Shown here piece after piece: positions 4,114 to 17,513 of a stretch of 32,592 nucleotides of DNA. Both the position numbers and the translations under genes were made by a program. The notes under the pieces are model-generated. The model had not been told where the DNA came from and ran no database searches. It saw only the letters and a program-made list of their open reading frames with translations. How positions within the stretch are numbered: the first letter of the stretch is position 1; each line of letters opens with the position of its first letter. The DNA comes from an uncultured archaeon (GTDB lineage Archaea; Asgardarchaeota; Lokiarchaeia; Sigyniarchaeales; SOKP01): the NCBI GenBank assembly GCA_964447495.1, contig CAYUTF010000017.1:17904-50495 (forward strand), read 5' to 3'.

Positions 4114-4656
4114 ATGTCTGATTATCTCAAATTTGTTTCACAATTGAGTCTACCATTTTTAGAAACGCCTTGGGAGCTCATACCAAATATATTTAATCTT
4201 TTGGCAGAGAAGTTCAATCTAATTCATAATTCCTCCCAAAAACTAATCGACTTAGGCGCAGGAAATGGTCGAGTAGTTATATATTCTGCATTAAATTATG
4301 GAATTAAATCCATTGGAATTGAAATTAATCATAACTTAATGGAGGAAGCAAAAGAAATAATAAAAACATTGAAACAAGAAAAAAGTTATAGAAAGGAACT
4401 ATTTAGATTAATAGAACTTAGGAATGAAGATTTATTTCAGCAAAATTTAAAGGATTATGACTTTATATATATTTATTCCTTGCCATCTATGCAGAAGTCT
4501 TTGAATCATGTATTTAAAACAGCAAAAAACGGAGCTATATTCATCTCATTCAAATACGAGCTTAACGGTTTCGATTCTTATTTACAGAAAGAATATAGTT
4601 TAGAAATTGATCAAAAAAATAAAGTTTGGACAGCATATTATTACAAAAAATTCTGA
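4114..4656 (+). CDS. Class I SAM-dependent methyltransferase, aKMT/FAM173/DOT1-like protein lysine methyltransferase
   Basis: PFLETP, IDLGAGNGRVV, GIEIN, DLF, YIYSL, ISFKY. Confidence 0.8.
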   Translation: MSDYLKFVSQLSLPFLETPWELIPNIFNLLAEKFNLIHNSSQKLIDLGAGNGRVVIYSALNYGIKSIGIEINHNLMEEAKEIIKTLKQEKSYRKELFRLIELRNEDLFQQNLKDYDFIYIYSLPSMQKSLNHVFKTAKNGAIFISFKYELNGFDSYLQKEYSLEIDQKNKVWTAYYYKKF

Positions 4657-4719: not shown

Positions 4720-5214
4720 TCATTTCGGGGATATTTTTTCTCTCAACCAAAGCAAATGTTGATATTGCCACTCTCTTTCTTTAGCTACAGCAGCATAGGC
4801 ATCAGAGGAGTTGCTGGCTCTATGTATAGCCTGTAAGCCATAAATTGCAGCACCAATAGAATGAGTTTTAACGTGAGCTGTTGCAACTGCCTGACCTGCG
4901 GCACGTGCTGCAGAGCGAGCGGCATTATCCTCGCCTATTTCACGAGCAGCAGTATGTGCATCAAGTGAAGCTTTGCGTATAACTGCCATCTTAAATGAAC
5001 CTGTATTTATCCATGTTTGGAGCGTTTCGAAAGCATTTTTGGGACGATGATCTTTAGGACATTTTTTCTCAAAGTATGGCAGAACACGTTTGGTACAATC
5101 AAATGCCCAGACAGCTAATGTCTTTTTATCAGTTTTATTTACAAGCTCTACAAGTCTCTCGTCTTTTCTGTAATCTATAAGTGAAAATTTGGATTTTTCT
5201 TTTTCAATTTTCAT
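4720..5214 (-). CDS. Imm5-like putative immunity protein
   Basis: WAFDCTKRVL...DHRP...ASLDAHTAARE...AARAAGQAVATAHV.THSIGAAIY signature. Confidence 0.8.
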   Translation of the reverse strand: MKIEKEKSKFSLIDYRKDERLVELVNKTDKKTLAVWAFDCTKRVLPYFEKKCPKDHRPKNAFETLQTWINTGSFKMAVIRKASLDAHTAAREIGEDNAARSAARAAGQAVATAHVKTHSIGAAIYGLQAIHRASNSSDAYAAVAKEREWQYQHLLWLREKISPK

Positions 5215-5366
5215 ATAATTAAATGAATAGTGTAAATAATTATAAAATCTTTGATTATGAGAGTAAAAATGAAGTTCATTCTCGATTAAAGCAGGAAAGA
5301 ATAAATTGCTTTTTTGTCATCATGTTTGAATGAATCATTCAAAACTTCGTGAAATCATCGTTATAG

Positions 5367-5528
5367 CTTAAAGATACTAAAATAAATTTGGAAAATCCAA
5401 TTGTCATTAATGCTAGTATTAGGGCAAAATTAGATGTTTTTAAGGATAAATACCCAACAACAACAATTTGGTCATGGTTTGTACAGCGTACAAGGAAAAT
5501 TACTGAAAATGATTTTAAAATAATTTAA
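5367..5528 (+). pseudogene. C-terminal remnant of an EVE/PUA-like domain protein
   Basis: Start-less frame LKDTKINLENPIVINASIRAKLDVFKDKYPTTTIWSWFVQRTRKITENDFKII*, preceded by an in-frame TAG at 5364. Confidence 0.45.
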
Positions 5529-5647
5529 AAAAAAAATATTGAAATTTATGACTAATGAAAATCTAATTGAGATTGATATTAAAGTAATTAAAAAAAAAAG
5601 ACAAATTTTTAAATTTAGCTGTAATAATGAAAAATGTAAAAATAAAA

Positions 5648-5665
5648 AATGAATAATTATTCATT
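5648..5665. promoter_or_regulatory. Perfect 18-bp palindrome AATGAATAATTATTCATT, candidate operator of the respiratory operon
   Basis: Self-complementary; ends 8 bp before the ATG at 5674. Confidence 0.55.
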
Positions 5666-5673
5666 AAATAGAA

Positions 5674-5985
5674 ATGATCATAATTGAACTTCTAGTATCA
5701 CTACTTATCGTATACCTTGTTGCATTTATAATTTATTTATTAGGAAGCAAAAAAAGAAGATATAGTGACACCTATCATTGTGGTGAAAGATTAATAGAAC
5801 ATAAGGTGAAATATCAAGTCCCATGGATATATTATGCCAGTCTTTTTATCGCATTTGATGCCACAGTAGTTCTTGTTGCAATTACCTCTCTTTCACTAAA
5901 TATTATAACTTTAATTTTCTTGATTTTGATCATGCTCTCTTTATTTTTTATTCCCAAAGAAAAAGAGAGTGTGAATGATGATTAA
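5674..5985 (+). CDS. nuoA: NuoA-like (complex I subunit 3) membrane subunit
   Basis: 3 TM; YHCGE (YECG equivalent); FIAFD. Confidence 0.85.
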   Translation: MIIIELLVSLLIVYLVAFIIYLLGSKKRRYSDTYHCGERLIEHKVKYQVPWIYYASLFIAFDATVVLVAITSLSLNIITLIFLILIMLSLFFIPKEKESVNDD

Positions 5986-6949
5986 AATCGCAATGATATT
6001 GATATGGGTTCTTCTATCGTTTTTATTCTCCCTTTTTTATGAGTGGTTTGATAGGAAGGTGTATGCACGTTTTCAAAATAGAATAGGCCCTCAAATGACC
6101 GGTTTCAAAGGAATAATGCAACCATTGGCGGACTTCATTAAATTATTAAACAAGGAGAGTATATTTCCAAAAGTAAGTAATACTTTTTTGATAACATTCT
6201 CTGCAATATCATCAGTCGCACTAATGTTTTTTATATTACTTTTTATTCCTCTTTATGATTTTAATGCACCACTTTCGTTTAGTGGTGATTTAATTTTATT
6301 ATTCGGGATCGGTGTGCTTATAGATCTTTTAATTATAATAACTGGTTATTCTGTTGCTTGCCCTTATTCAAATGAAGGTGCAGCAAGAAAGGCAGAGATG
6401 ATAATTTCCTTCGAAATTCCTTTCGGAATATCAATAGCAACTATTATAGCCATATCCAAATCTATTACTATAAAAGAAAGTTTGTTATTTCAATCGTCGG
6501 GTATTCCCCTTATATTATTCATGCCTTTAAGTTTTATTGCATATATATTTAGTAGCATAGCAAAAATAGAAAAAGTCCCATTTGATTCTCCAAGTGCAGA
6601 GTCAGAAATCGTAGCAGGATGGTCAACAGAAATCAGTGGGAGAACATTAGCCTTATTCAGACTTTCTTCGGATCTTGATATGTATTTTGTGGCATCTTTT
6701 GCAGCCATCCTTTTCCTAGGTGGTCCAACATTCCCTTATTTTAACTATCCTGAGTTATTATTTCTTAATCAGACTTTAAATTTTATAATATTCTTTCTCA
6801 AGACATCATTAATTGTCTTTATAATAACAATGATAAGGAGCCTTACTGCAAGATATCGCATTGATCAAGTAATTAACTATTTCTGGAAAGTTATTTTTCC
6901 ATTGGCAATGTTGAATTTAATTATAATTATTATATTTGGTTTGGGGTGA
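5975..6949 (+). CDS. nuoH: NuoH/MbxM-like membrane anchor subunit
   Basis: RKVYARFQNRIGP, GIMQPLADFIKLLNKE, PFD..AESEIVAGW.TEISG, RYRIDQ. Confidence 0.95.
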   Translation: MMIKIAMILIWVLLSFLFSLFYEWFDRKVYARFQNRIGPQMTGFKGIMQPLADFIKLLNKESIFPKVSNTFLITFSAISSVALMFFILLFIPLYDFNAPLSFSGDLILLFGIGVLIDLLIIITGYSVACPYSNEGAARKAEMIISFEIPFGISIATIIAISKSITIKESLLFQSSGIPLILFMPLSFIAYIFSSIAKIEKVPFDSPSAESEIVAGWSTEISGRTLALFRLSSDLDMYFVASFAAILFLGGPTFPYFNYPELLFLNQTLNFIIFFLKTSLIVFIITMIRSLTARYRIDQVINYFWKVIFPLAMLNLIIIIIFGLG

Positions 6950-6955
6950 TTCAAT

Positions 6956-7210
6956 ATGAATGTTCTTATTATTCCTCTGTCGTTATTTATTTTAATAATA
7001 CTAACCACATTAACAATCTATTTTGTAGAAAAATTAATGCACGTTGCTATTTTTTTTACAGTATTCAATATCTTAATAGGAATATTTTATATTTTTTTGG
7101 GCTATACTCTCTTGGGCATATTTCAGATAACATTATACTCTGTTTCGATGGCAACTCTATTTTTTTATATAATATGTTTAATAGGAGGGGAAGATAATAA
7201 AGAAGAGTAA
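6956..7210 (+). CDS. NuoJ N-terminal half / MbhD-like small membrane subunit
   Basis: 3 TM; LGY.LLGIFQITLYSVSM resembles NuoJ TM3; position between nuoH and nuoK. Confidence 0.7.
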   Translation: MNVLIIPLSLFILIILTTLTIYFVEKLMHVAIFFTVFNILIGIFYIFLGYTLLGIFQITLYSVSMATLFFYIICLIGGEDNKEE

Positions 7211-7214
7211 ATTA

Positions 7215-7469
7215 TTGTCATGTGTGTTATTGTTCTTAATGGTAACAATTACTGTTTCTTATGCCATTGAATTTGAGAATATTCAAAGCAATTATGTAGA
7301 AAACACAGGTGATATTTTAACAGGTGAGGATGGTAAAGTATTTGATACATTAATAGGAAAATTTATCTGGGAATATAGGGGATTCGAGATGATCATAATA
7401 GCTTTTATTTTACTCAGCGTATATGCTGGTATTTCAACACAAATTAGGAGATCCAATGATAGGAAGTGA
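7215..7469 (+). CDS. NuoJ C-terminal half / MbhE (MnhB-like) small membrane subunit
   Basis: IGKFIWEYRGFE motif followed by a TM helix; TTG start uncertain. Confidence 0.65.
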   Translation: MSCVLLFLMVTITVSYAIEFENIQSNYVENTGDILTGEDGKVFDTLIGKFIWEYRGFEMIIIAFILLSVYAGISTQIRRSNDRK

Positions 7470-7792
7470 TAAAAATGATTGATATAATAATACTTATATT
7501 TTTTTTAATAATGACAGAATTTTTCATAAGCTTGGTAATAGCTGCCACTAGTAAAAATGTAATCAAAATAATAATAGGCGTGGAGATTTTAATAATTACT
7601 GCAAATGCATTTCTAGTCTTTTTTTCTGTATATTTTGCAGGCGGTAGTTTAGATCCATTTGTTGTAACAATCGTTATGATCTCGACAATAATTGCAGCAA
7701 TTGTTGCTGCGTTTGTTCTTATTATTGTTTATATGATGCAAGAAAAATTCAATACACTTAATGCTGAAAAAATTAGTGAGCTTAGGTGGTAA
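7466..7792 (+). CDS. nuoK: NuoK/MbhG/MnhC-like subunit
   Basis: KNVIKIIIGVEILI, DP, 3 TM. Confidence 0.8.
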   Translation: MIKMIDIIILIFFLIMTEFFISLVIAATSKNVIKIIIGVEILIITANAFLVFFSVYFAGGSLDPFVVTIVMISTIIAAIVAAFVLIIVYMMQEKFNTLNAEKISELRW

Positions 7793-7801
7793 AAGATATA
7801 T

Positions 7802-9880
7802 ATGGAAGCTTGGGCGATATGGTTAATTCCATTGATTGGTTCCTTTATAGCATATGGGATTGCGAAGAGGAGGAAGTCATACGCCGGATATTTTTCGTTA
7901 GGTATATCAATTATGTGTTTTTTTTTATCCGTAAAAATTTTATATGATATGATCACATCTCCACTATCTCTCCCCTACCAAGACACATTCAATTTATTTT
8001 ACGGTTTTGGAGTAGCTTATTTAGAATTTGGTATATTAATTGATGAGTTTAGTGTACTTATAATAATTATTATCGCATTTATTTCAATTTTGATTTTTAT
8101 TTATAGCTTGGGTTACATGCGTGAAGAAATCGATTTAGGGCGATATTGGTTTTGGATGAATTTCTCATTAGGTTCTATGTTTCTTTTGGTAATATCGAAT
8201 AATTTTATTGAAATGCTATTAGCATTTCTAATGGTCAGTCTTTGTAATTGGGGACTAATCTCATTCTGGTATAAAAAAACAAACCCAAGTCTGGTTCCTG
8301 GTTTTGATACTGATGGAAAATATAATAGACACTGTGGAACTAAGGCACTAATAACTATATTTATCGCTGGGTGCTTTATGGAGGTTGCAATTATTTTACT
8401 CGAATTCGCTACTATGAATTCTTTTGGTCATCCTACTTCAAATTTTTTGACTCTTAGTAAAGATAATTGTTGGGTAACTAAACTTTTAAATGCTGGAATC
8501 CTTCCTCTATTCTCAATATTGATAATTTCAAGTTCTCTCGCAATAAGTGCTCAGTTCCCATTTCATGATTGGCTTCCTGAGTCGACAGCTGGGCCTATAA
8601 CTGCTTCCACATTAATGTTTTCCGCGACTACGATAAATGCAGGTGTTTATATACTTGGTAGGCTCTTTTTAATAAATTATGACTTATATTCTTTATCAGT
8701 TGCTTCTGAGCTCTCATTAATATTTGAAATTGCGATTGTATGCGGACTAATAACTATTATATTAACTGGTGCTTATGGAATAGTAGCGAGGGATCTAAAG
8801 AGAATTCTTGCTTTTTCAACCTCAAATCAGTTGGGATACATATTCTTTATATTCGGTGTTGCAGGTCTTTATCTTAATTATTCAGCATTTGTTGCAGGTG
8901 TTCTTTATATCCTCGCACATAGCATATTTAATTCGCTTCTTTTTTTAAGTTCTGGCTTAATAATACACTCAACAGGTATCAAAAATGTCTATGAAATGGG
9001 CTCTCTTAGAAAATATATGAAAAAGACTTATATCTTAATGATTATAGGAGCATTTTCGATTGTTGGAATCCCTCCATTGGTGGGATATCTCAGCATTCAA
9101 CTTATAGTTAACGAAATATTTGTTCTCCCTGCATGGATTACTATTCTATTTATCATGACATTTCTCCTAACTAACCTATATATATTTAGAATGATTGGGC
9201 TTATATTTTTTGGGACCGAGAGTGAGAAAATTAAAAAAATCGAGACAATGGAAAAAGTACACAAGCCTACCTCCATAATGACAGTTCCTCTAATTATTTT
9301 AGCCACTTTATCTTTTGGATTAATCTTTTTTTACCCTACTATTATTAATTTTATATCTAGAAGTATTCCACTGGATATCTCATTTGATAAACTATTGTAT
9401 TTCCTTTCTAATACATATTTGTCTATTGGTAGTTATATAATTGTTACATTACTTATAGTGGGCTTATTAATAACCTATCCTTTCTATTTCACAAGAAAAA
9501 TCTCTACTCGTGCTATAACATCAAAATATCTCATAAAAGATATACATAAATTGTTAAAGAAGCGAGTGATCTTTAATCCTCTTTATTATTCATTCTACCA
9601 AGGGATTTTTAAATTAGGAAATGCCACAAAAAACTTCCATCAATCAATTGATAAGCTTTATTACGGTGTTGGCCAAAGGATTACTAAATTAGGAAATGCC
9701 ACAAAAAACTTCCATCAATCACTTGATAAATTTTATTGCAGGCTTGCGTATAGTGTTAGAAAGAGTGGTGATCATATAAGAAAATTCCACACTGGAAAGA
9801 TAAATTTAAATTTGATTTATTATGTTATCAGTATATTTTTATCCCTTATTATTATATATGCGTTGGTGAAGCTGAGTTAA
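7802..9880 (+). CDS. nuoL: NuoL/MrpA-like antiporter-type subunit with degenerate proton-channel residues
   Basis: IYSLGYM, SAQFPFHDWLP, GP, DLKRILAFST.NQLGY, C-terminal lateral helix + HTG + TM16. Confidence 0.92.
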   Translation: MEAWAIWLIPLIGSFIAYGIAKRRKSYAGYFSLGISIMCFFLSVKILYDMITSPLSLPYQDTFNLFYGFGVAYLEFGILIDEFSVLIIIIIAFISILIFIYSLGYMREEIDLGRYWFWMNFSLGSMFLLVISNNFIEMLLAFLMVSLCNWGLISFWYKKTNPSLVPGFDTDGKYNRHCGTKALITIFIAGCFMEVAIILLEFATMNSFGHPTSNFLTLSKDNCWVTKLLNAGILPLFSILIISSSLAISAQFPFHDWLPESTAGPITASTLMFSATTINAGVYILGRLFLINYDLYSLSVASELSLIFEIAIVCGLITIILTGAYGIVARDLKRILAFSTSNQLGYIFFIFGVAGLYLNYSAFVAGVLYILAHSIFNSLLFLSSGLIIHSTGIKNVYEMGSLRKYMKKTYILMIIGAFSIVGIPPLVGYLSIQLIVNEIFVLPAWITILFIMTFLLTNLYIFRMIGLIFFGTESEKIKKIETMEKVHKPTSIMTVPLIILATLSFGLIFFYPTIINFISRSIPLDISFDKLLYFLSNTYLSIGSYIIVTLLIVGLLITYPFYFTRKISTRAITSKYLIKDIHKLLKKRVIFNPLYYSFYQGIFKLGNATKNFHQSIDKLYYGVGQRITKLGNATKNFHQSLDKFYCRLAYSVRKSGDHIRKFHTGKINLNLIYYVISIFLSLIIIYALVKLS
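9581..9739 (+). repeat. 75-bp (25-aa) in-frame tandem duplication in the NuoL lateral helix
   Basis: 37 identical bp at 9610-9646 and 9685-9721; protein KLGNATKNFHQS(I/L)DK twice. Confidence 0.95.
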
Positions 9881-9881
9881 T

Positions 9882-11390
9882 ATGTCAGAATTAGTATTTT
9901 TAACAAGTAAGTATCTATTTCCCATAATTATACCCCTAATTACAGCTATTATAGTTTTAATAACCGGAAAGTGTCGGGAAAATAAAGTAATATTAGGAGC
10001 TATTAGCACAGGTGGTTCATCTCTAGTTGTGTTCTTTTCCTTATGCAATCTTATCGAGTCATTGACTACTCCAATTCTTCTCGATTTTCATACCGGAGGA
10101 ACAATTATTGCAATTGATGGTCTTTCTGCATTAATATCACTTTTTTCCTCCATTCTAGGGACGATAATATCTCTTTACAGTATTGGTTACTTAGAGGAAA
10201 AACGAATAACAGAATATTATTTTCTGCTTTTGTTAATGATATCGGCACTAAATGGTGTAGCATATTCGGGTGATCTCATAACCCTTTTTGTGTTTACTGA
10301 ATTTCTCGCAATTACCGCTTATATTCTAGTTGCTTTTTACAGAAATAAGGAATCTATTGAAGCGTCATTTAAGTATATCATAATGGGCTCAATTGGTGCT
10401 GCTTTAGTGTTGTTTGCACTATCATTTGTCTACATCATCGCAGGCACTACTAATTTGACAGAATTAAATAGTGCATTAAATGATCAACCCCTTACCATTT
10501 ATTATTTCCTTTTTATCATGTTCGTACTTGGATTTGGTGTGAAGGCAGCAATCTTTCCACTCCACACATGGTTGCCGGACGCACATTCAGCAGCTCCATC
10601 TGGAGTAAGTGCAATGCTTTCGGGAATTGTTATTGAAATAGAAATGTTCGCATTAATAAAAGTATTAGTCTCTATCTTTTATAACGAGATTTTATTATCT
10701 TTTGACAATATAATGGTAATCTTTTTGCTTATAATATCTGCGTTAACTATAACAATTCCAAATTTAACTGCACTAGTACAAGAAGATATAAAAAGAATGC
10801 TAGCCTATTCCAGTGTCTATAATATAGGTTTGATGATAGTAGGTATAGCGATAGGTACTCCTTTCGCACTAGCAGCAACAATATTTCATATTCTAAATCA
10901 TGGAATATCAAAAGCGACCATGTTTATTTGTGCTGGATCATTTATAAAAGAGGGGAAAACAAGGGAAATAAAGAAGTTGATGGGGATCGGAACTAAAATG
11001 AAAGTTACAGGGATGATATTTGCCCTAAGCGCATTTTACTTAGCAGCATTTCCACCATTAGCTATGTTTTGGAGTAAGCTATTTCTGATAGAAGCTGCAA
11101 TTGGATCATCACAACAAGTTGGTTGGATGGGGATTATGATCGCAATTATAATCGTAGTGAACACTGTGATTTCTATAGGCTATTATTATGGCGTTTTAGT
11201 AAAAAACATAGTCATTGTTCCCGAAAATCAGATTTCAGAAGAAGTTCATAATGCCTTAGAAAAAAACAATACGATATTAGCGTCCGAGGTAACACTTTTC
11301 ATTATAATGCTACTAGTATCCATTATGTCGTTATTCATTTGGGGATTTATTTGTAAATGTGTAGATTCTTTCTTATCTGTTTATAGTTGA
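9882..11390 (+). CDS. NuoN/NuoM/MbhH (MrpD)-like antiporter subunit
   Basis: VFTEF (TM5 Glu), GVKAAIFPLHTWLPDAH, KRMLAYSS, NHGISKA, FWSKL. Confidence 0.92.
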   Translation: MSELVFLTSKYLFPIIIPLITAIIVLITGKCRENKVILGAISTGGSSLVVFFSLCNLIESLTTPILLDFHTGGTIIAIDGLSALISLFSSILGTIISLYSIGYLEEKRITEYYFLLLLMISALNGVAYSGDLITLFVFTEFLAITAYILVAFYRNKESIEASFKYIIMGSIGAALVLFALSFVYIIAGTTNLTELNSALNDQPLTIYYFLFIMFVLGFGVKAAIFPLHTWLPDAHSAAPSGVSAMLSGIVIEIEMFALIKVLVSIFYNEILLSFDNIMVIFLLIISALTITIPNLTALVQEDIKRMLAYSSVYNIGLMIVGIAIGTPFALAATIFHILNHGISKATMFICAGSFIKEGKTREIKKLMGIGTKMKVTGMIFALSAFYLAAFPPLAMFWSKLFLIEAAIGSSQQVGWMGIMIAIIIVVNTVISIGYYYGVLVKNIVIVPENQISEEVHNALEKNNTILASEVTLFIIMLLVSIMSLFIWGFICKCVDSFLSVYS

Positions 11391-11404
11391 GGTGTCATTT
11401 TTAT

Positions 11405-11899
11405 ATGTCTGAAGGAATTAGTTTTTTAAAACAACTTAAAGAGGATTCATTAGAATATATAGAAGATAAAAATATCTTTTTTTTTAAAATTAGGGAAAAG
11501 GATTATCTCAATATCGCAAAATACCTCAAAGACCATGGGTTCCGAAGATTATTAACTTTAAGTGCGGTGGACTGGATAAAAGATGATTCATTTGAGATAT
11601 TTTTTATCTTACATATTATGAACAAGAATATCTATATTAAAGTTTCCACACGCATTCCACGTAGAGAGAATGTTAAAATTGAAAGCTTATCCAAGTTATG
11701 GCCGAATGCTGCGTTGCACGAAAGAGAGGTATGGGAAATGTTCGGTATTATCTTTGAGGGGAATAAAATGTTAAAACCATTATTTTTAGAAAATTGGATA
11801 GGTCCACCTCCCTTTAGAAAGGATTTTGATTGGAGGAAATATGTCAAAAGGAATTTCAACATAATGATGCCAGAGTTTAAAAGAGATGATGGAAAATGA
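11405..11899 (+). CDS. nuoC: NuoC/MbxK-like subunit
   Basis: LSAVDW, WPNAALHEREVWEMFGIIFEG, PFRKDF; ATG at 11405 preferred over TTG at 11387. Confidence 0.93.
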   Translation: MSEGISFLKQLKEDSLEYIEDKNIFFFKIREKDYLNIAKYLKDHGFRRLLTLSAVDWIKDDSFEIFFILHIMNKNIYIKVSTRIPRRENVKIESLSKLWPNAALHEREVWEMFGIIFEGNKMLKPLFLENWIGPPPFRKDFDWRKYVKRNFNIMMPEFKRDDGK

Positions 11900-13896
11900 T
11901 TAAGAGAGCATTTAATATATTAAAAACAGGGGTAAAACTATTTATAAAAAAACCAATTACATTCAAATTTCCTCCAGAGTCACCAATCTCAAAGAAATTT
12001 AGGGGACGGCATATCTTTCATCCAGAAAAATGTATATCTTGTGGGATATGTTTTAGAATCTGTCCTAATAAAGCGATTAATATGGTAGAACGACAAAAAG
12101 ATGGAAGAATTGTCTATTATCCAAGTATTAATTATTCAAAGTGTTGTTTTTGCGGACTGTGTCTCGATTTATGTCCTACAAAAGCTCTTGATACAACAAA
12201 TTTTTCTATAATAATTTCGATAAATAAAAAAGATTTAATTTTCACACCCGAAAAGTTGGCTCAACAACCAGTGTTAGAACATCCTGAAAAACCAAAGAGG
12301 AAAAATATTGTAAGTTGGGCGCGTTCAAGGAGCTTATGGATAACAAACTATTTTGTTGGATGCTGTTTCATAGAAGCAATACCATGGATTGGTAGTGGAT
12401 TTGATATGGAAAGATTTGGGATGATTGCAAAAGGAAGCCCGTTACATTCGGATGTACTTCTTATAGGGGGCTATGTGACTTATAAAACATTAAAGAGGAT
12501 AATTAGTATATATAAAGCGATGCCTCAACCTAAATTTGTATTGGTTCTTGGAAACTGTCCTATGACAGGAGGAACATATTGGGATAGTTACAATACCATA
12601 AAAAAGATTGATGATTATATCCCTGTGGATATATGGATCGCTGGATGTCCGACTAGACCAGAGTCAATAGGTTTTGCTGCCTACCATGCAATACTAGCTA
12701 TCGAAAGCGGATATATGCCGAGGGAAATAAAAGTTAGAACAAAGAAGAAGATTCAATATAGAAATACAGATGATTTAAAAGTAGAACCAATCATAAAGAA
12801 AATTAGAACCGATGAGAGGATACTTTCATTTGGCCCTCAACATCCAGCATCAGGTAATTTTTCGCTAAGATTAAATATTAAGGGAGAAACAATATACAAT
12901 GCTGTAAGTATTGTGGGGTATCTCCACAGAGGACTTGAAAAACTCTTTGAATATAGAACGTGGTATCAAAACATAATACTTATATCACGTATTTGTGTGT
13001 TAGATGGAGCATCATATGAAATAGGATATGTTAATGCCGTAGAGAAATTATTAGAAATTGAAATTCCAGATAAAGCAAAGTATCTACGAGTAATTCAGGC
13101 AGAATTATCAAGGATTCAAAGTCATTTAATTAATTTAGGGCTCGTTGCTTATAGTAGTGGATTTGATACAGTAGCGAGGCTTGTATGGGGGGATAGAGAA
13201 AAAATACTTTTCCTCCTTGAGGCGTTATGTGGAGGTCGTATTTATCAAATATATAATATTCCAGGAGGGGTGAGGTGTGATGTCTCAGATGAATTTAAAA
13301 AAAATGCTCCGAATATAATATCATATATAAAAAATAGACTTAAAATTCTTGATGACCTCTTTATGGAAAATTTAGTTTTCAGAAAAAGAGCTATTAATTT
13401 AGGGAAAATATCTCGTGATATTGCAATAGAATCTGATATTACTGGTCCCAACATTAGGGCATCAGGTGTAAAATTTGATGTGAGAAAAGCAACTCCATAT
13501 GCAGCCTACGACAAACTTCATTTCGATGTGCCAATATTTAACGATGGAGATGTATACCATAGAGTTTTAGTAAGACGACTAGAAATCGAAAAAAGCTTAA
13601 ATTTAATAGAAGAAAGTATGAATAAGTTACCTGGTGGTCCTATTAAAGTGGAATTTAGCCCCATGGATCAAATTCAAAAAGGAGAAGCAATATCTTTTGT
13701 CGAAAGTGCAAGAGGAGAGCTATGTTTTCATGTGGTAAGCGATGGGGGACAATATCCTTATAGAATTAAAGTAAGGGGGCCCACATTTGATTCCATTCTT
13801 TTTTTGTTGCCAAAATTACTGAAAGGGTATTTTCTAGCTGATTTACCATTAATTTACTGGAGTCTGGATAATTGTCCCGCAGATCATGATAGATGA
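11896..13896 (+). CDS. Fused NuoI-NuoB-NuoD (MbxN-MbxJ-MbxL-like) catalytic module, MBS-type two-Cys active site
   Basis: Two CxxCxxCxxxCP motifs; GCCFIE...GNC...GCP.RPE; FGPQHP, GYLHRGLEK, RICVLD, ESARGE, DNCPADHDR. Confidence 0.93.
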   Translation: MIKRAFNILKTGVKLFIKKPITFKFPPESPISKKFRGRHIFHPEKCISCGICFRICPNKAINMVERQKDGRIVYYPSINYSKCCFCGLCLDLCPTKALDTTNFSIIISINKKDLIFTPEKLAQQPVLEHPEKPKRKNIVSWARSRSLWITNYFVGCCFIEAIPWIGSGFDMERFGMIAKGSPLHSDVLLIGGYVTYKTLKRIISIYKAMPQPKFVLVLGNCPMTGGTYWDSYNTIKKIDDYIPVDIWIAGCPTRPESIGFAAYHAILAIESGYMPREIKVRTKKKIQYRNTDDLKVEPIIKKIRTDERILSFGPQHPASGNFSLRLNIKGETIYNAVSIVGYLHRGLEKLFEYRTWYQNIILISRICVLDGASYEIGYVNAVEKLLEIEIPDKAKYLRVIQAELSRIQSHLINLGLVAYSSGFDTVARLVWGDREKILFLLEALCGGRIYQIYNIPGGVRCDVSDEFKKNAPNIISYIKNRLKILDDLFMENLVFRKRAINLGKISRDIAIESDITGPNIRASGVKFDVRKATPYAAYDKLHFDVPIFNDGDVYHRVLVRRLEIEKSLNLIEESMNKLPGGPIKVEFSPMDQIQKGEAISFVESARGELCFHVVSDGGQYPYRIKVRGPTFDSILFLLPKLLKGYFLADLPLIYWSLDNCPADHDR

Positions 13897-14243
13897 GCAA
13901 TGTAAAATATACTGTTACTTATAATTTTAAATTGAGATTCTTAGAAACTAAAATAATAATTGATAAAATATCCCAATTTAAATTTTTAGTTAATCTATTA
14001 ATATTTTACCTTCAGAGTTTTACAGTTTTTAAGAAATAAAAAGATAATGGAGTAATTGGTTAAAAATTAAAAAATGTTGTAAACGAATTCCTCTTTATGA
14101 ACTGAATAGAAAAAAAATTGATAATTGGCTTCATTAAATTACAATTTAACAAACTTACTAATCATATACTTGATATGAAAATTTAAAGAATAATCAGTGT
14201 TTCACGATCTTACTTCTTAATTTTCCTGATATTGAATCTAGAT

Positions 14244-15458: not shown

Positions 15459-17513
15459 ATGGTAAAAATACAAGATATTCAGATTAACATCGATTCGCAA
15501 AAACTAGCCCAAGGATATTACGTAAAATATATTCTGGAAACAAATGGCAACACAGAAGCAGAATCTTTAGGCGAAAAATTTATGCAACAATATGAAAAGT
15601 TACTTAAAAAGCACGAAGAGGAAGACATTTACGATCTCCATCGATATTATCGACTAATAACCGAATTTAAACCTGCTCTGTTGATGATTTTGAAACCAGG
15701 TAAGGAATTTGATATGATTTGCGATGTCGCTGTAAAGAATTTCAATGTAGCTTTAGATAGGATTAGAAAGCAAATTAAGCAAAATAAACTCACTCCAACA
15801 ATGAAGGGTCCTATTATGCCAGGGAGTAGCAAAACCATGAATTTAAAGTATCTATGTACAGTTTGTAAGCAGACTTTCGATATTCCAACTGAAACTAAAG
15901 AAAAATTGTTGAACAGCGATGAAAAACAAAAACTTCCAAAACACTGCGAAAAAGAAATGATTCTTAAAATAGTAAGGACTCAAGAAGACGTATCTATTGA
16001 TAAAACTAAAGAAATTGAGCCCGAACTCAAAATCTTTTCTGCTGAAGTGTTAATGAGTCATATAGATTCTGAAGAAGCAAAAACAGAATACTTAAAACTA
16101 TTAAGTGTCGGAATAGATGTTGGCTCCTCCACATGTCATCTTGTGTTCTCGGCCCTTACTCTGAAAAGGGAGTTGAGTTTTTTTAACATGTCAAATCGAT
16201 TTATTCTTAATGATCGAGAGATAATATATGAAGGGAATATCATAATCACTCCTTTAATTGATCGTAATACAATCGATATTGAGGCAGTTATAAAGTTTTT
16301 TAAAGAAGAATATGAGAAAGCAGGTATTACTCCTGACATGGTAGATACAGGTGCGGTAATTGTTACTGGTGAAACTGCTAAAAAGCAAAACGCGTTAGAG
16401 ATTGTAAGTCAACTTTCTTCCGAGTCTGGAAAATTTGTAAGCGCTTCAGCTGGTCCTAATTTTGAATCAGTTCTTGGAGCAATGGGAAGTGGCATCGTTG
16501 AATTGTCTAAACAGAAACAAAACACTATATTAAACGTGGATATCGGAGGAGGTACAAGTAATCTCGCAATTTCATCAAAAGGAGAGATACTTACTACCTC
16601 CTGTATCAACATTGGAGGTCGACTACTTGGAATAGACGATAATTTTAAGATCTGGAGAATTGATGCTCCAACTGAAATTGTTATGAATCAGTTGAACATG
16701 AATTATGAGATTGGTGATAAAATAACTAAAGATGATATTAGGAGGATAGCCCATGAATATGCAAAGTCTCTATTTGAGGTGATGAGAGGCCCAGCAACTA
16801 GTAACATTGCTATAGAATTAATGATGACTAATGATTTGGATTTCTCTATCCCAATCGATGAAGTATCTTTTTCGGGGGGAGTTGCAGAAATGATTTATGG
16901 TAAAACCTCTGAGACATATGAGGATATTGGTATATACATAGCCGAAGAAATCAAAAATCTAATAAAAGAATTTAATGTACCATTAATTGAACCTGAAAAT
17001 AAAATAAGGGCAACAGTGATCGGAGCTGGTGCATTTTCTCTCTCGGTATCTGGTTCTACTTCCTATTACGATGAAAATATTGATTTACCCATCTTAAATG
17101 TACCAGTAGTACCTGCTAATATAAATCCAAGAGAGCAAAATCTAAAAAGTAAAGTGAAACAAGCGCTAAAGAACTTTAATTTAACAGAAGGTGAAGACGT
17201 TTTTGCCTTATATTTCAAAGATTTAATAGCTCAAAATGATTTAGAGATGCTTGCTGAAGAAATCGAAAAAGCTCTTCCAAATTCAGTGGCAAATAAGAAA
17301 TTAATAATGATTATTCTTAGATATGATGGAGCAAAAATGTTTGGAATAACTATTAGAGATAACACTTCAATAAAACAAAACCTTTTTTGTTTAGATGAAT
17401 TAGAGTTAGAAGCTGGAGATTGGATTGACATAGGTGCTCCTCTCAAAGATGGAGTAGCATTCCCGGTCACGATTAAAAGCTTAGTATTTAATAAAGTTAG
17501 GAAAGATTTGTGA
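15459..17513 (+). CDS. eutA: EutA-family reactivating factor (actin-like ATPase) with ~210-aa N-terminal extension including a CxxC...HC Zn-binding motif
   Basis: LLSVGIDVGSST, TGAVIVTGETAKKQNA, AGPNFES, NVDIGGGTSN, FSGGVA, IRATVIGAG, GDWIDIG.P, PVTIKSLVF. Confidence 0.88.
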   Translation: MVKIQDIQINIDSQKLAQGYYVKYILETNGNTEAESLGEKFMQQYEKLLKKHEEEDIYDLHRYYRLITEFKPALLMILKPGKEFDMICDVAVKNFNVALDRIRKQIKQNKLTPTMKGPIMPGSSKTMNLKYLCTVCKQTFDIPTETKEKLLNSDEKQKLPKHCEKEMILKIVRTQEDVSIDKTKEIEPELKIFSAEVLMSHIDSEEAKTEYLKLLSVGIDVGSSTCHLVFSALTLKRELSFFNMSNRFILNDREIIYEGNIIITPLIDRNTIDIEAVIKFFKEEYEKAGITPDMVDTGAVIVTGETAKKQNALEIVSQLSSESGKFVSASAGPNFESVLGAMGSGIVELSKQKQNTILNVDIGGGTSNLAISSKGEILTTSCINIGGRLLGIDDNFKIWRIDAPTEIVMNQLNMNYEIGDKITKDDIRRIAHEYAKSLFEVMRGPATSNIAIELMMTNDLDFSIPIDEVSFSGGVAEMIYGKTSETYEDIGIYIAEEIKNLIKEFNVPLIEPENKIRATVIGAGAFSLSVSGSTSYYDENIDLPILNVPVVPANINPREQNLKSKVKQALKNFNLTEGEDVFALYFKDLIAQNDLEMLAEEIEKALPNSVANKKLIMIILRYDGAKMFGITIRDNTSIKQNLFCLDELELEAGDWIDIGAPLKDGVAFPVTIKSLVFNKVRKDL

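Follow-up and report, generated by a model that had tools for sequence, protein, structure and literature searches.

Among the Asgard archaea, a complex-I-like group 4 hydrogenase, with an L subunit that bears a lateral helix (HL) and with two antiporters, has been described by Valentin-Alvarado et al. 2024 (PMC11291895), and the same group 4(g) [NiFe] hydrogenase type is also noted in Korarchaeia (PMC10667645). MBS, the membrane-bound sulfane sulfur reductase of Pyrococcus furiosus (formerly MBX; PDB 6U8Y; Yu et al. 2020, PMC7684303) is described there with two antiporter-like subunits, one bearing a lateral helix, and with a charged axis in both pumps. This report concerns 32,592 nucleotides of DNA from an uncultured Lokiarchaeal archaeon of the Sigyniarchaeales (assembly GCA_964447495.1, contig CAYUTF010000017.1, positions 17,904 to 50,495 of the forward strand), a stretch referred to throughout as the window, and in particular the gene at 7802..9880 (+) for L, the NuoL-like distal antiporter-like subunit of a complex-I-like operon. 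In the alignments of this L, the lateral charge relay of the family (Glu in transmembrane helix (TM) 5, Asp in TM6, Lys in TM7, His in TM8, His/Lys in TM11 and Lys-Asp in TM12) is replaced by uncharged residues. Judged by sequence, L is a family descendant without the feature on which the function of the family rests.

The group 4(g) Asgard hydrogenases have the membrane arm nearest to that of the Lokiarchaeal operon. They share the order A-H-J-K-L-MN and the two antiporter-like subunits, with L 37-46% and MN 39-48% identical, but unlike the Lokiarchaeal operon they keep the full L relay. The sister-clade operons, which are of this type, run B-C-D-I-A-H-J-K-L-MN, with separate B, C, D and I genes, both CxxC motifs in D, and a CxxC in B. 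With MBS the operon shares the two antiporter-like subunits, one of them with a lateral helix, and an MbsL-like D part without the equivalents of Nqo4 H38/Y87. It differs from MBS in that its distal pump is without the charged axis, its membrane arm is of the NuoA/H/J/K/L type where that of MBS is of the Mrp type, its I, B and D parts are fused, and its B part has adjacent cysteines (CC), as in Nqo6, where MbsJ has C-x-x-C. In MbsJ, the proximal [4Fe-4S] cluster is reported to have only three cysteine ligands, with C25-x-x-C28 in a shortened loop (PMC7684303). Literature searches turned up no account of a NuoL/ND5 that is relay-less by nature, nor any of this Lokiarchaeal operon; the supplements of PMC11291895 (Supplementary Fig. 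9, Data 8) and the supplementary alignments of PMC7684303 might hold such sequences.

The L subunit and its missing charge relay

The gene for L and the codons that matter most to the argument, which were checked, are as follows (aa, amino acids; nt, nucleotides; pLDDT, predicted local distance difference test).

7802..9880 (+): NuoL-like distal antiporter-like subunit L, 692 aa, PF00662 and PF00361
8228-8230 (+): codon of L143
8369-8371 (+): codon of G190
8543-8545 (+): codon of I248
8618-8620 (+): codon of F273
8906-8908 (+): codon of Y369
8930-8932 (+): codon of N377
9095-9100 (+): codons of I432-Q433
9575..9880 (+): lateral helix HL (residues 592-663) and TM16 (668-691) of L, from the secondary structure of the model, local pLDDT only 41-67
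9598..9747 (+): tandem 75-nt (25-aa) repeat inside the lateral helix of L, two copies 85% alike

Pfam, HMMER against the PDB, and AlphaFold with Foldseek all assign L to the NuoL/ND5/NdhF type. The reading frame is open over its 692 aa, as the initial annotation of this DNA had stated; it carries Proton_antipo_N (PF00662, E 2e-10) and Proton_antipo_M (PF00361, E 3e-32), and it lies directly after NuoK, as in the NuoL family. The PF00361 score of L in the clade described below is 112-130 bits, lower than the 184-200 bits of sister-clade L, and the top NCBIfam match, NuoL, reaches 298 bits, far under the equivalog cut-off of 556. The top PDB sequence matches by phmmer are NdhF, Nad5 and NuoL. 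An AlphaFold model made with 40 homologues as input (pLDDT 84.4, predicted TM-score 0.83) has the family's 14-TM core with discontinuous TM7 (break at 249-256) and TM12 (break at 422-426), the beta-hairpin after TM2, and then HL and TM16; Foldseek places NdhF/NuoL chains first, with TM-scores of 0.65-0.83. Like the chains 6hum_F, 8e9g_L, 7p63_L and 3rko_L, then, L has the Pfam pair, the fold and the gene place of the family, and it keeps the structural residues D81, R114, K181, R287, H373 and R463. Unlike them, it has uncharged residues in the relay and new conserved Glu at 137, 194, 309 and 438, its HL holds a 25-aa repeat of variable copy number, and it is partnered with one other antiporter-like subunit, not two. 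The length of the lateral helix would thus differ by up to 50 residues between otherwise alike operons.

The losses are numbered here by E. coli NuoL, taken from NC_000913. Alignments were made by phmmer to NdhF 6hum_F and two plant Nad5 chains, and by MAFFT with E. coli NuoL and 120 database homologues. Both place L143 of the window at E144; F187 and G190 at R175 and D178 in TM6; I248 and F273 at K229 and H254; Y369 and N377 at H334 and K342; and I432 and Q433 at K399 and D400. Within the relay region H338 alone is kept, as H373. The initial annotation, which had aligned the sequences by eye, listed E144L, R175F, D178G, K229I, H254F, K342N and K399I; the computed alignments reproduce every one of these substitutions and add H334Y and D400Q. 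They reveal no charged residues moved into these positions, and the flanking motifs are in register. In the AlphaFold model the lost sites fall in TM5, 7, 8, 11 and 12. The buried charged relay that is typical of the family (TM5 Glu, TM7 Lys, TM8 His/Lys, TM11 Lys, TM12 Lys/Glu) is absent from L.

Specificity of the losses

Conservation at the nine key columns is close to absolute in the 115 homologues that lie outside the clade (E 94%, D 98%, K 100%, H 100%, H 99%, H 100%, K 100%, K 100%, D 89%). The same homologues have 18 columns in which a charged residue reaches at least 85% conservation. Ten of these are retained in the clade (D81, R114, K181, H255, R287, K333, H373, H389, R463 and H487), and the eight that are lost or being lost are exactly the relay. 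A HMMER search of 1.84 billion cluster representatives (50%-identity clusters) provided the best 150 matches, which with the query gave 151 aligned sequences. In 128 of them every one of the nine key columns has its canonical residue; 18 show one deviation, two show two, and one shows three, while P0004, a representative of the clade, deviates at five and the query at eight, the highest counts among the best 150 matches. A deviation at K229, H254 or K399 was seen in none of the 149 other representatives among those matches. The comparisons indicate that the relay losses in the clade exceed chance.

Of the charged columns that show no variation in the sister clade, every member of the relay-less clade has preserved only 14 of 29 in L, compared with 20/21 in NuoH, 17/18 in MN, 2/3 in NuoK and 1/2 in NuoA. 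On these counts the losses are specific to L and to the small Lokiarchaeal clade. Use of the head subunits as a control in this test is invalid, as the heads differ in kind (hydrogenase as against MbsL-like). Decay of NuoK and NuoA, the E-channel, was likewise considered and set aside, since the sister clade, too, is without the second NuoK Glu and the NuoA Glu.

The relay-less clade and its short forms

Five protein clusters, 69-94% identical, have the losses of E144, D178, H334, K399 and D400 in common, and to this extent the orthologs share the substitutions first seen in the window; K229, H254 and K342, on the other hand, are retained in some members. The six long forms have I, I, I, K, K, K at 229 (248 in the window), F, N, H, H, H, I at 254 (273), Y, Y, F, Y, C, C at 334 (369), and N, K, K, K, T, T at 342 (377). 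All four of these residual relay sites are variable, and three of the four have at least three different residues, as compared with 42% variable columns in the core, 43 of 338 of which have at least three. Sites that are invariant elsewhere are now among the most variable in the clade, which argues for loss of constraint. The next relatives of L, 37-46% identical and annotated as Njordarchaeales and other Asgard metagenome-assembled genomes, retain the full relay. In a quick IQ-TREE analysis the long and the short relay-less sequences group together (SH-aLRT 100). The branch that leads to them, at 1.03 changes/site, is the longest internal one; their clade is sister to the intact-relay sequences P0007, P0008 and L010 and has short branches inside it.

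The short forms come from a second setting of the same operon. Genome G075, which belongs to another genus and is 100% complete, has the operon order A, H, J1, J2, K, L', MN, C and the start of I-B-D, with subunits 57-88% identical to those of the window. Its L' is a protein of 369 aa in which long-form residues 2-207 are fused in frame to 549-689, with 66-87 also missing. A second short form of 344 aa, 87% identical and with the same boundaries, represents a cluster of 12 sequences. The short L' is without TM7-14 and retains TM1-6, a TM15-like helix, the lateral helix and TM16, and the MN of G075 keeps its full relay. AlphaFold models the 369-aa form poorly (mean pLDDT 53.6, with only the first five helices at 70-86), and only the all-helical outline was used.

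The clade would then have lost its relay in three steps. E144, D178, H334, K399 and D400 may have been lost once, on the long stem branch of the small Lokiarchaeal clade; K229, H254 and K342 would have decayed independently in sublineages thereafter; and in one lineage the whole TM7-14 core would have been deleted in frame.

Membrane arm and head of the operon

The operon occupies 5674-13896 and consists of NuoA, NuoH, NuoJ as two open reading frames (ORFs), NuoK, L, MN, NuoC and a fused I-B-D. Its genes other than L are as follows.

5674..5985 (+): NuoA-like small membrane subunit, 103 aa; PF00507, E 4e-7; aligned with relatives
5975..6949 (+): NuoH / MbsM-type membrane anchor of the head, 324 aa; PF00146, E 3e-75
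6956..7210 (+): N-terminal half of NuoJ as its own 84-aa ORF; PF00499, positions 3-63 of 146, under the curated cut-off
7215..7469 (+): 84-aa membrane ORF at the place of the C-terminal half of NuoJ; no Pfam or NCBIfam match
7466..7792 (+): NuoK-like subunit, 108 aa; PF00420; first conserved Glu kept
9882..11390 (+): MN, second antiporter-like subunit (MbhH/MbsH/NuoM-N type), 502 aa; relay intact, TM8 Lys replaced by E252 (10635-10637)
11387..11899 (+): NuoC / MbsK-like subunit, 170 aa; PF00329, E 1e-30
11896..13896 (+): fused NuoI-NuoB-NuoD head subunit (I-B-D), 666 aa; eight ferredoxin-type Cys, CC motif in the B part

The source genome, 98% complete, has only two PF00361 genes, both in this operon, and not the three antiporter-like subunits (L, M, N) of complex I, NDH-1 and Fpo. 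MN keeps the TM5 Glu, TM7 Lys, TM11 His and Lys, and TM12 Lys. The initial annotation had credited this neighbor with its Glu and Lys residues, which is right for the TM5 Glu and for the Lys of TM7, TM11 and TM12; in TM8, however, the Lys is a Glu. The TM8 residue is also Lys in E. coli NuoM and NuoN, and the charge reversal in the clade accompanies the loss of the L relay. NuoJ is split in the same way in L009, L018 and L042, and the ORF at 7215-7469 matches the C-terminal part of ORFs of 124-183 aa at the NuoJ position in the sister loci L013, L025 and L026. Over 6956-7469, NuoJ thus takes the form of two 84-aa ORFs in the window, as it does in L009, L018 and G075, and of a single ORF of ~182 aa in L025 and L026.

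In the head, the D part has C-x-x-D at both motifs and is without the four [NiFe] Cys ligands, where sister-clade D has both CxxC. It aligns end to end with MbsL (6u8y_L) at 303 bits, its best PDB match (Nqo4 248, MbhL 194), and keeps the same two of four former [NiFe] Cys as MbsL. The quinone His and Tyr are also missing: E. coli NuoCD H224 and Y273, which we take to be the equivalents of Nqo4 H38 and Y87, align with G/N and V. The B part has the tandem CC ligand, aligned with the CC of E. coli NuoB and with NdhK; its best PDB match is MbsJ, with a loop of the same length (no gap), the CC adjacent, and Phe at the C25 position. All Fe-S cysteine motifs are present in the head. An Mrp-derived membrane arm (MbsA-G, H, H') is not found; the arm has NuoA/H/J/K/L types, and only MN resembles MbsH/MbhH. 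By these comparisons the operon welds an Asgard hydrogenase-type membrane arm to a nickel-free, quinone-site-free, MbsL-like head, and the enzyme, by analogy with its relatives, probably oxidizes ferredoxin. No sulfur-related gene was seen in the flanks examined, and the source genome has no match to PF02621 of the futalosine pathway, a single family that cannot show quinones to be absent.

Among 400 sampled Asgard genomes, 23 (G000 included) encode fused I-B-D proteins of ~666 aa, 53-64% identical, and such proteins are also present in Bathyarchaeia. In the other Asgard archaea and in Bathyarchaeia I-B-D forms a stand-alone pair with NuoC, whereas here the pair is joined to a membrane-arm operon; no membrane-arm genes lie beside the stand-alone NuoC and I-B-D at any of ten loci upstream or any of four downstream. 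The genome of L010, the nearest intact L, also has a fused I-B-D gene, on a different contig. Stand-alone pairs at L067-L080 (in G312, G313, G281, G267, G272, G260, G269, G248, G290 and G258) have no membrane-arm genes within ~4-15 kb. Two I-B-D homologues, L048 (G283) and L052 (G303), have one in-frame stop each (TAA and TGA, respectively) in an otherwise full-length match; these could be broken genes, sequencing errors or, for the TGA, selenocysteine.

Gene integrity and selection

The 692 codons of L are free of stops in four loci, namely the window, L009, L018 and L021. Selection was measured as dN/dS (omega) by the Nei-Gojobori method, with the window and L018 (dS 0.28) as the main pair. 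For this pair the ratio is 0.31 for L, 0.26 for MN, 0.30 for NuoC, 0.13 for NuoH, 0.17 for I-B-D, 0.40 for NuoK and 0.25-0.48 for the NuoJ halves. Within L, residues 1-207 have a ratio of 0.23, the core (208-545) one of 0.30 and residues 546-692 one of 0.50; over the four most diverged pairs, the core taken by itself lies at 0.29-0.33. The closest pair, window and L009 (dS 0.04), has an omega of 0.71 on 18 synonymous differences. The L gene is no pseudogene and is under purifying selection; the incipient pseudogene that the initial annotation had allowed for is not borne out at a dN/dS of ~0.3. Contigs from an independent salt-marsh DNA run (X2) match the window letter for letter from 7987 to 9639, a span that takes in the codons of F273 and N377. 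Variants 90-99% identical, with no indel in L, occur in two marine-sediment runs; in these, codon 273 is His and codon 377 is Lys.

The function of a relay-less L

With its relay uncharged, L would be unable to take up, pass and release protons in the manner of NuoL/ND5. The reading that we prefer, at a probability of roughly 0.7, is that the canonical proton path of L is dead and that L is kept as an end-cap or clamp scaffold, with ions moving only via MN and perhaps via the NuoH/A/J/K channel. The first six helices of L would pack against MN, and the lateral helix together with TM16 would clamp the short membrane arm. The enzyme would have one pump module fewer than its hydrogenase-type relatives. 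Truncation of E. coli NuoL at its termini is reported to give a fragile complex I (PMC3274701), which we count in favor of a scaffold role.

The initial annotation had taken L for a switched-off, purely structural pump subunit that lowers the H+/e- stoichiometry, which would suit a low-driving-force acceptor such as polysulfide. That L is switched off is well supported: all of the canonical relay residues are gone, the residual ones vary in the clade, and a relative has deleted the pump core. That it is purely structural is the best reading, although the constraint on the core and the conserved Glu gained at 137, 194, 309 and 438 do not sit easily with it. A lower H+/e- stoichiometry is an inference. 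Circumstantially, the MbsL-like D part, with two of four Cys and no quinone His/Tyr, fits a link to polysulfide. The energetic logic fails, however, for the [NiFe] hydrogenase sisters, with an even smaller driving force, keep an intact L. It is contrary to that logic, too, that P. furiosus MBS is described with two pumps as against one in the hydrogenase MBH (PMC7684303). A link to polysulfide and low driving force may be proposed only weakly.

Several observations weigh against L as a mere clamp. The core is constrained about as much as the N-terminal part (omega of 0.30 vs 0.23), where a spacer might drift faster, and in four of six pairs, the four most diverged included, constraint is weakest in the HL-bearing C-terminal part (omega 0.5-1.06; the value of 1.06, for the pair with L021, rests on only five synonymous differences). 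The 25-aa repeat of the lateral helix is present in one copy (P0006), two copies (P0001, P0004, P0134) or three (G075), which is odd for a precise clamp. RNA contigs in one metatranscriptome run fall only in the MN gene (232 and 151 nt, with DNA carry-over possible), and there are none over L in that single run. Glu has been gained at 137, 309 and 438 in all six long forms and at 194 in five of the six, at positions which in other homologues have Q, L/H, A/V and L, respectively, and where Glu is rare. Finally, the TM8 Lys of MN is replaced by Glu in five of five clade operons and is Lys in nine of nine sister sequences.

These last observations are the substance of the leading alternative, in which L has been rewired, with a new acidic set (E137 in TM5, E194 in TM6, E309 in TM9, E438 in TM12b, and D256 in the TM7 break) serving another path, either a vestibule or outward exit where MN and L meet, for the ion that MN hands over, or a cation (Na+) site. 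In NuoL the hairpin lies outside and HL inside. With this topology and the helix order of the model, three of the new residues are shifted outward of those lost, E137 standing 6 residues before the lost Glu, E194 4 after the lost Asp, and E438 6 after the lost Lys. E137 and E194 survive even in the core-deleted short forms, the purifying selection on the core is as such a set would have it, and the K-to-E change in MN TM8 is correlated with it. Against this, in the model three of the gained Glu are only a few residues away from the end of a helix and so may be surface residues; there is no Lys or His to pass protons between them; the residual relay sites drift freely; and TM7-14 could be deleted, E309 and E438 with it, while the operon was otherwise intact. 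We regard a rewired L as unlikely.

It may be asked if the complex still pumps ions with a relay-less L, so that the ion of MN leaves by MN itself or by way of a newly acquired acidic vestibule on the outer side, between MN and L (E137/E194). The sequences allow this as a tentative proposal, which we would hold to be doubtful.

Distribution and mobility of the operon

Within the class, L is matched at E <= 1e-30 in four of 161 genomes (G000, G110, G120 and G075), with no match in 41 other species of the genus; apart from G000, the carriers are two of 54 species of genus g22 and one of five species of g12. DNA similarity of the window to L009 (97.2%, over 5345-14196) and to L018 (89.5%, over 5672-13897) begins and ends at the operon, and the flanks are unrelated; the 97% match lies in a genome from a different genus. 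The operon proteins are 89-98% identical to those of G120 (94-98% for the large ones), and the flanking aldehyde dehydrogenase is only 83% identical in G120, where it is located elsewhere. This difference in identity argues for recent transfer of a cassette. The flanking genes do not decide the genus of contig C17, its aldehyde dehydrogenase being 79-84% identical to both g1 and g22. Twelve studies contributed metagenome runs with near-identical cassette DNA, from salt marsh, marine sediment and vents (95-100% identity in the salt-marsh and marine-sediment runs), and the four runs compared have no indel in L. Taken together, the comparisons point to a mobile cassette that seems to have spread recently between genera. 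A search for terminal direct or inverted repeats around the cassette gave only short, AT-rich, chance-like matches, with no integration signature and no integrase seen.

The patchy distribution bears on another explanation, namely that the operon is a dying relic in which the changes in L are the first visible decay. The relatively high omega of the small subunits (0.4-0.5) and the large deletion of L in one lineage would be in keeping with decay. But three genomes have the full set of nine ORFs unbroken, L021 and G075 have no broken ORF among those that are present, and the dN/dS of the large subunits is 0.13-0.31. NuoH and MN keep nearly all of their charged columns, as given above, and no Fe-S Cys motif is missing. 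The deletion is in frame and is kept in a second cluster, of 12 sequences, and a cassette found 95-100% identical in so many environments, with an apparent recent spread between genera, has little of the relic about it. Decay of the whole operon is thus very improbable. An artefact of alignment or assembly, considered since the earlier alignment was made by eye, found no support and may be dismissed, as three independent alignment methods agree with flanking motifs in register, the model puts the sites in the helices named above, contigs from an independent run are identical over most of the gene, and five orthologous clusters share the changes.

Three neighbors of the cassette were noted in passing.

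4114-4656 (+): small methyltransferase; best Pfam match DOT1 histone-methyltransferase, E 5e-8, above the curated cut-off
4720-5214 (-): 164-aa protein of the Imm-5-like immunity family, PF21805, E 9e-44, directly upstream of the cassette
15459-17513 (+): EutA-like protein, PF06277, E 5e-134, with an N-terminal extension of ~210 residues without a family match

The EutA-like protein is matched in one of two genomes of the same genus (g1) and in none of three others searched.

Implications for the complex I superfamily

For complex I, the number of ions moved by each antiporter-like subunit and the site of their exit are disputed. In the "domino" model of Sazanov, all protons exit through NuoL/ND5 (PMC10212512), and Yu et al. 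have speculated on the effect of inactivating one MBS pump (PMC7684303). The relay-less clade amounts to a natural, graded experiment on these questions, in which relay residues have been removed, the leftovers are drifting, and the core has been deleted with the N-terminal helices and HL kept. If pumping continues with a relay-less L, the clade would be a natural counter-example, within the superfamily, to strict exit through NuoL/ND5 only, and a natural form of the "inactivate one pump" test proposed for MBS. For the Lokiarchaea, the operon is also an instance of a mobile respiratory cassette that moves between genera otherwise without any such complex. If the enzyme is active, it would mean that the end subunit can be reduced to a clamp, that the lateral helix is of value apart from pumping, and that a different exit is workable for an arm of the complex-I type.

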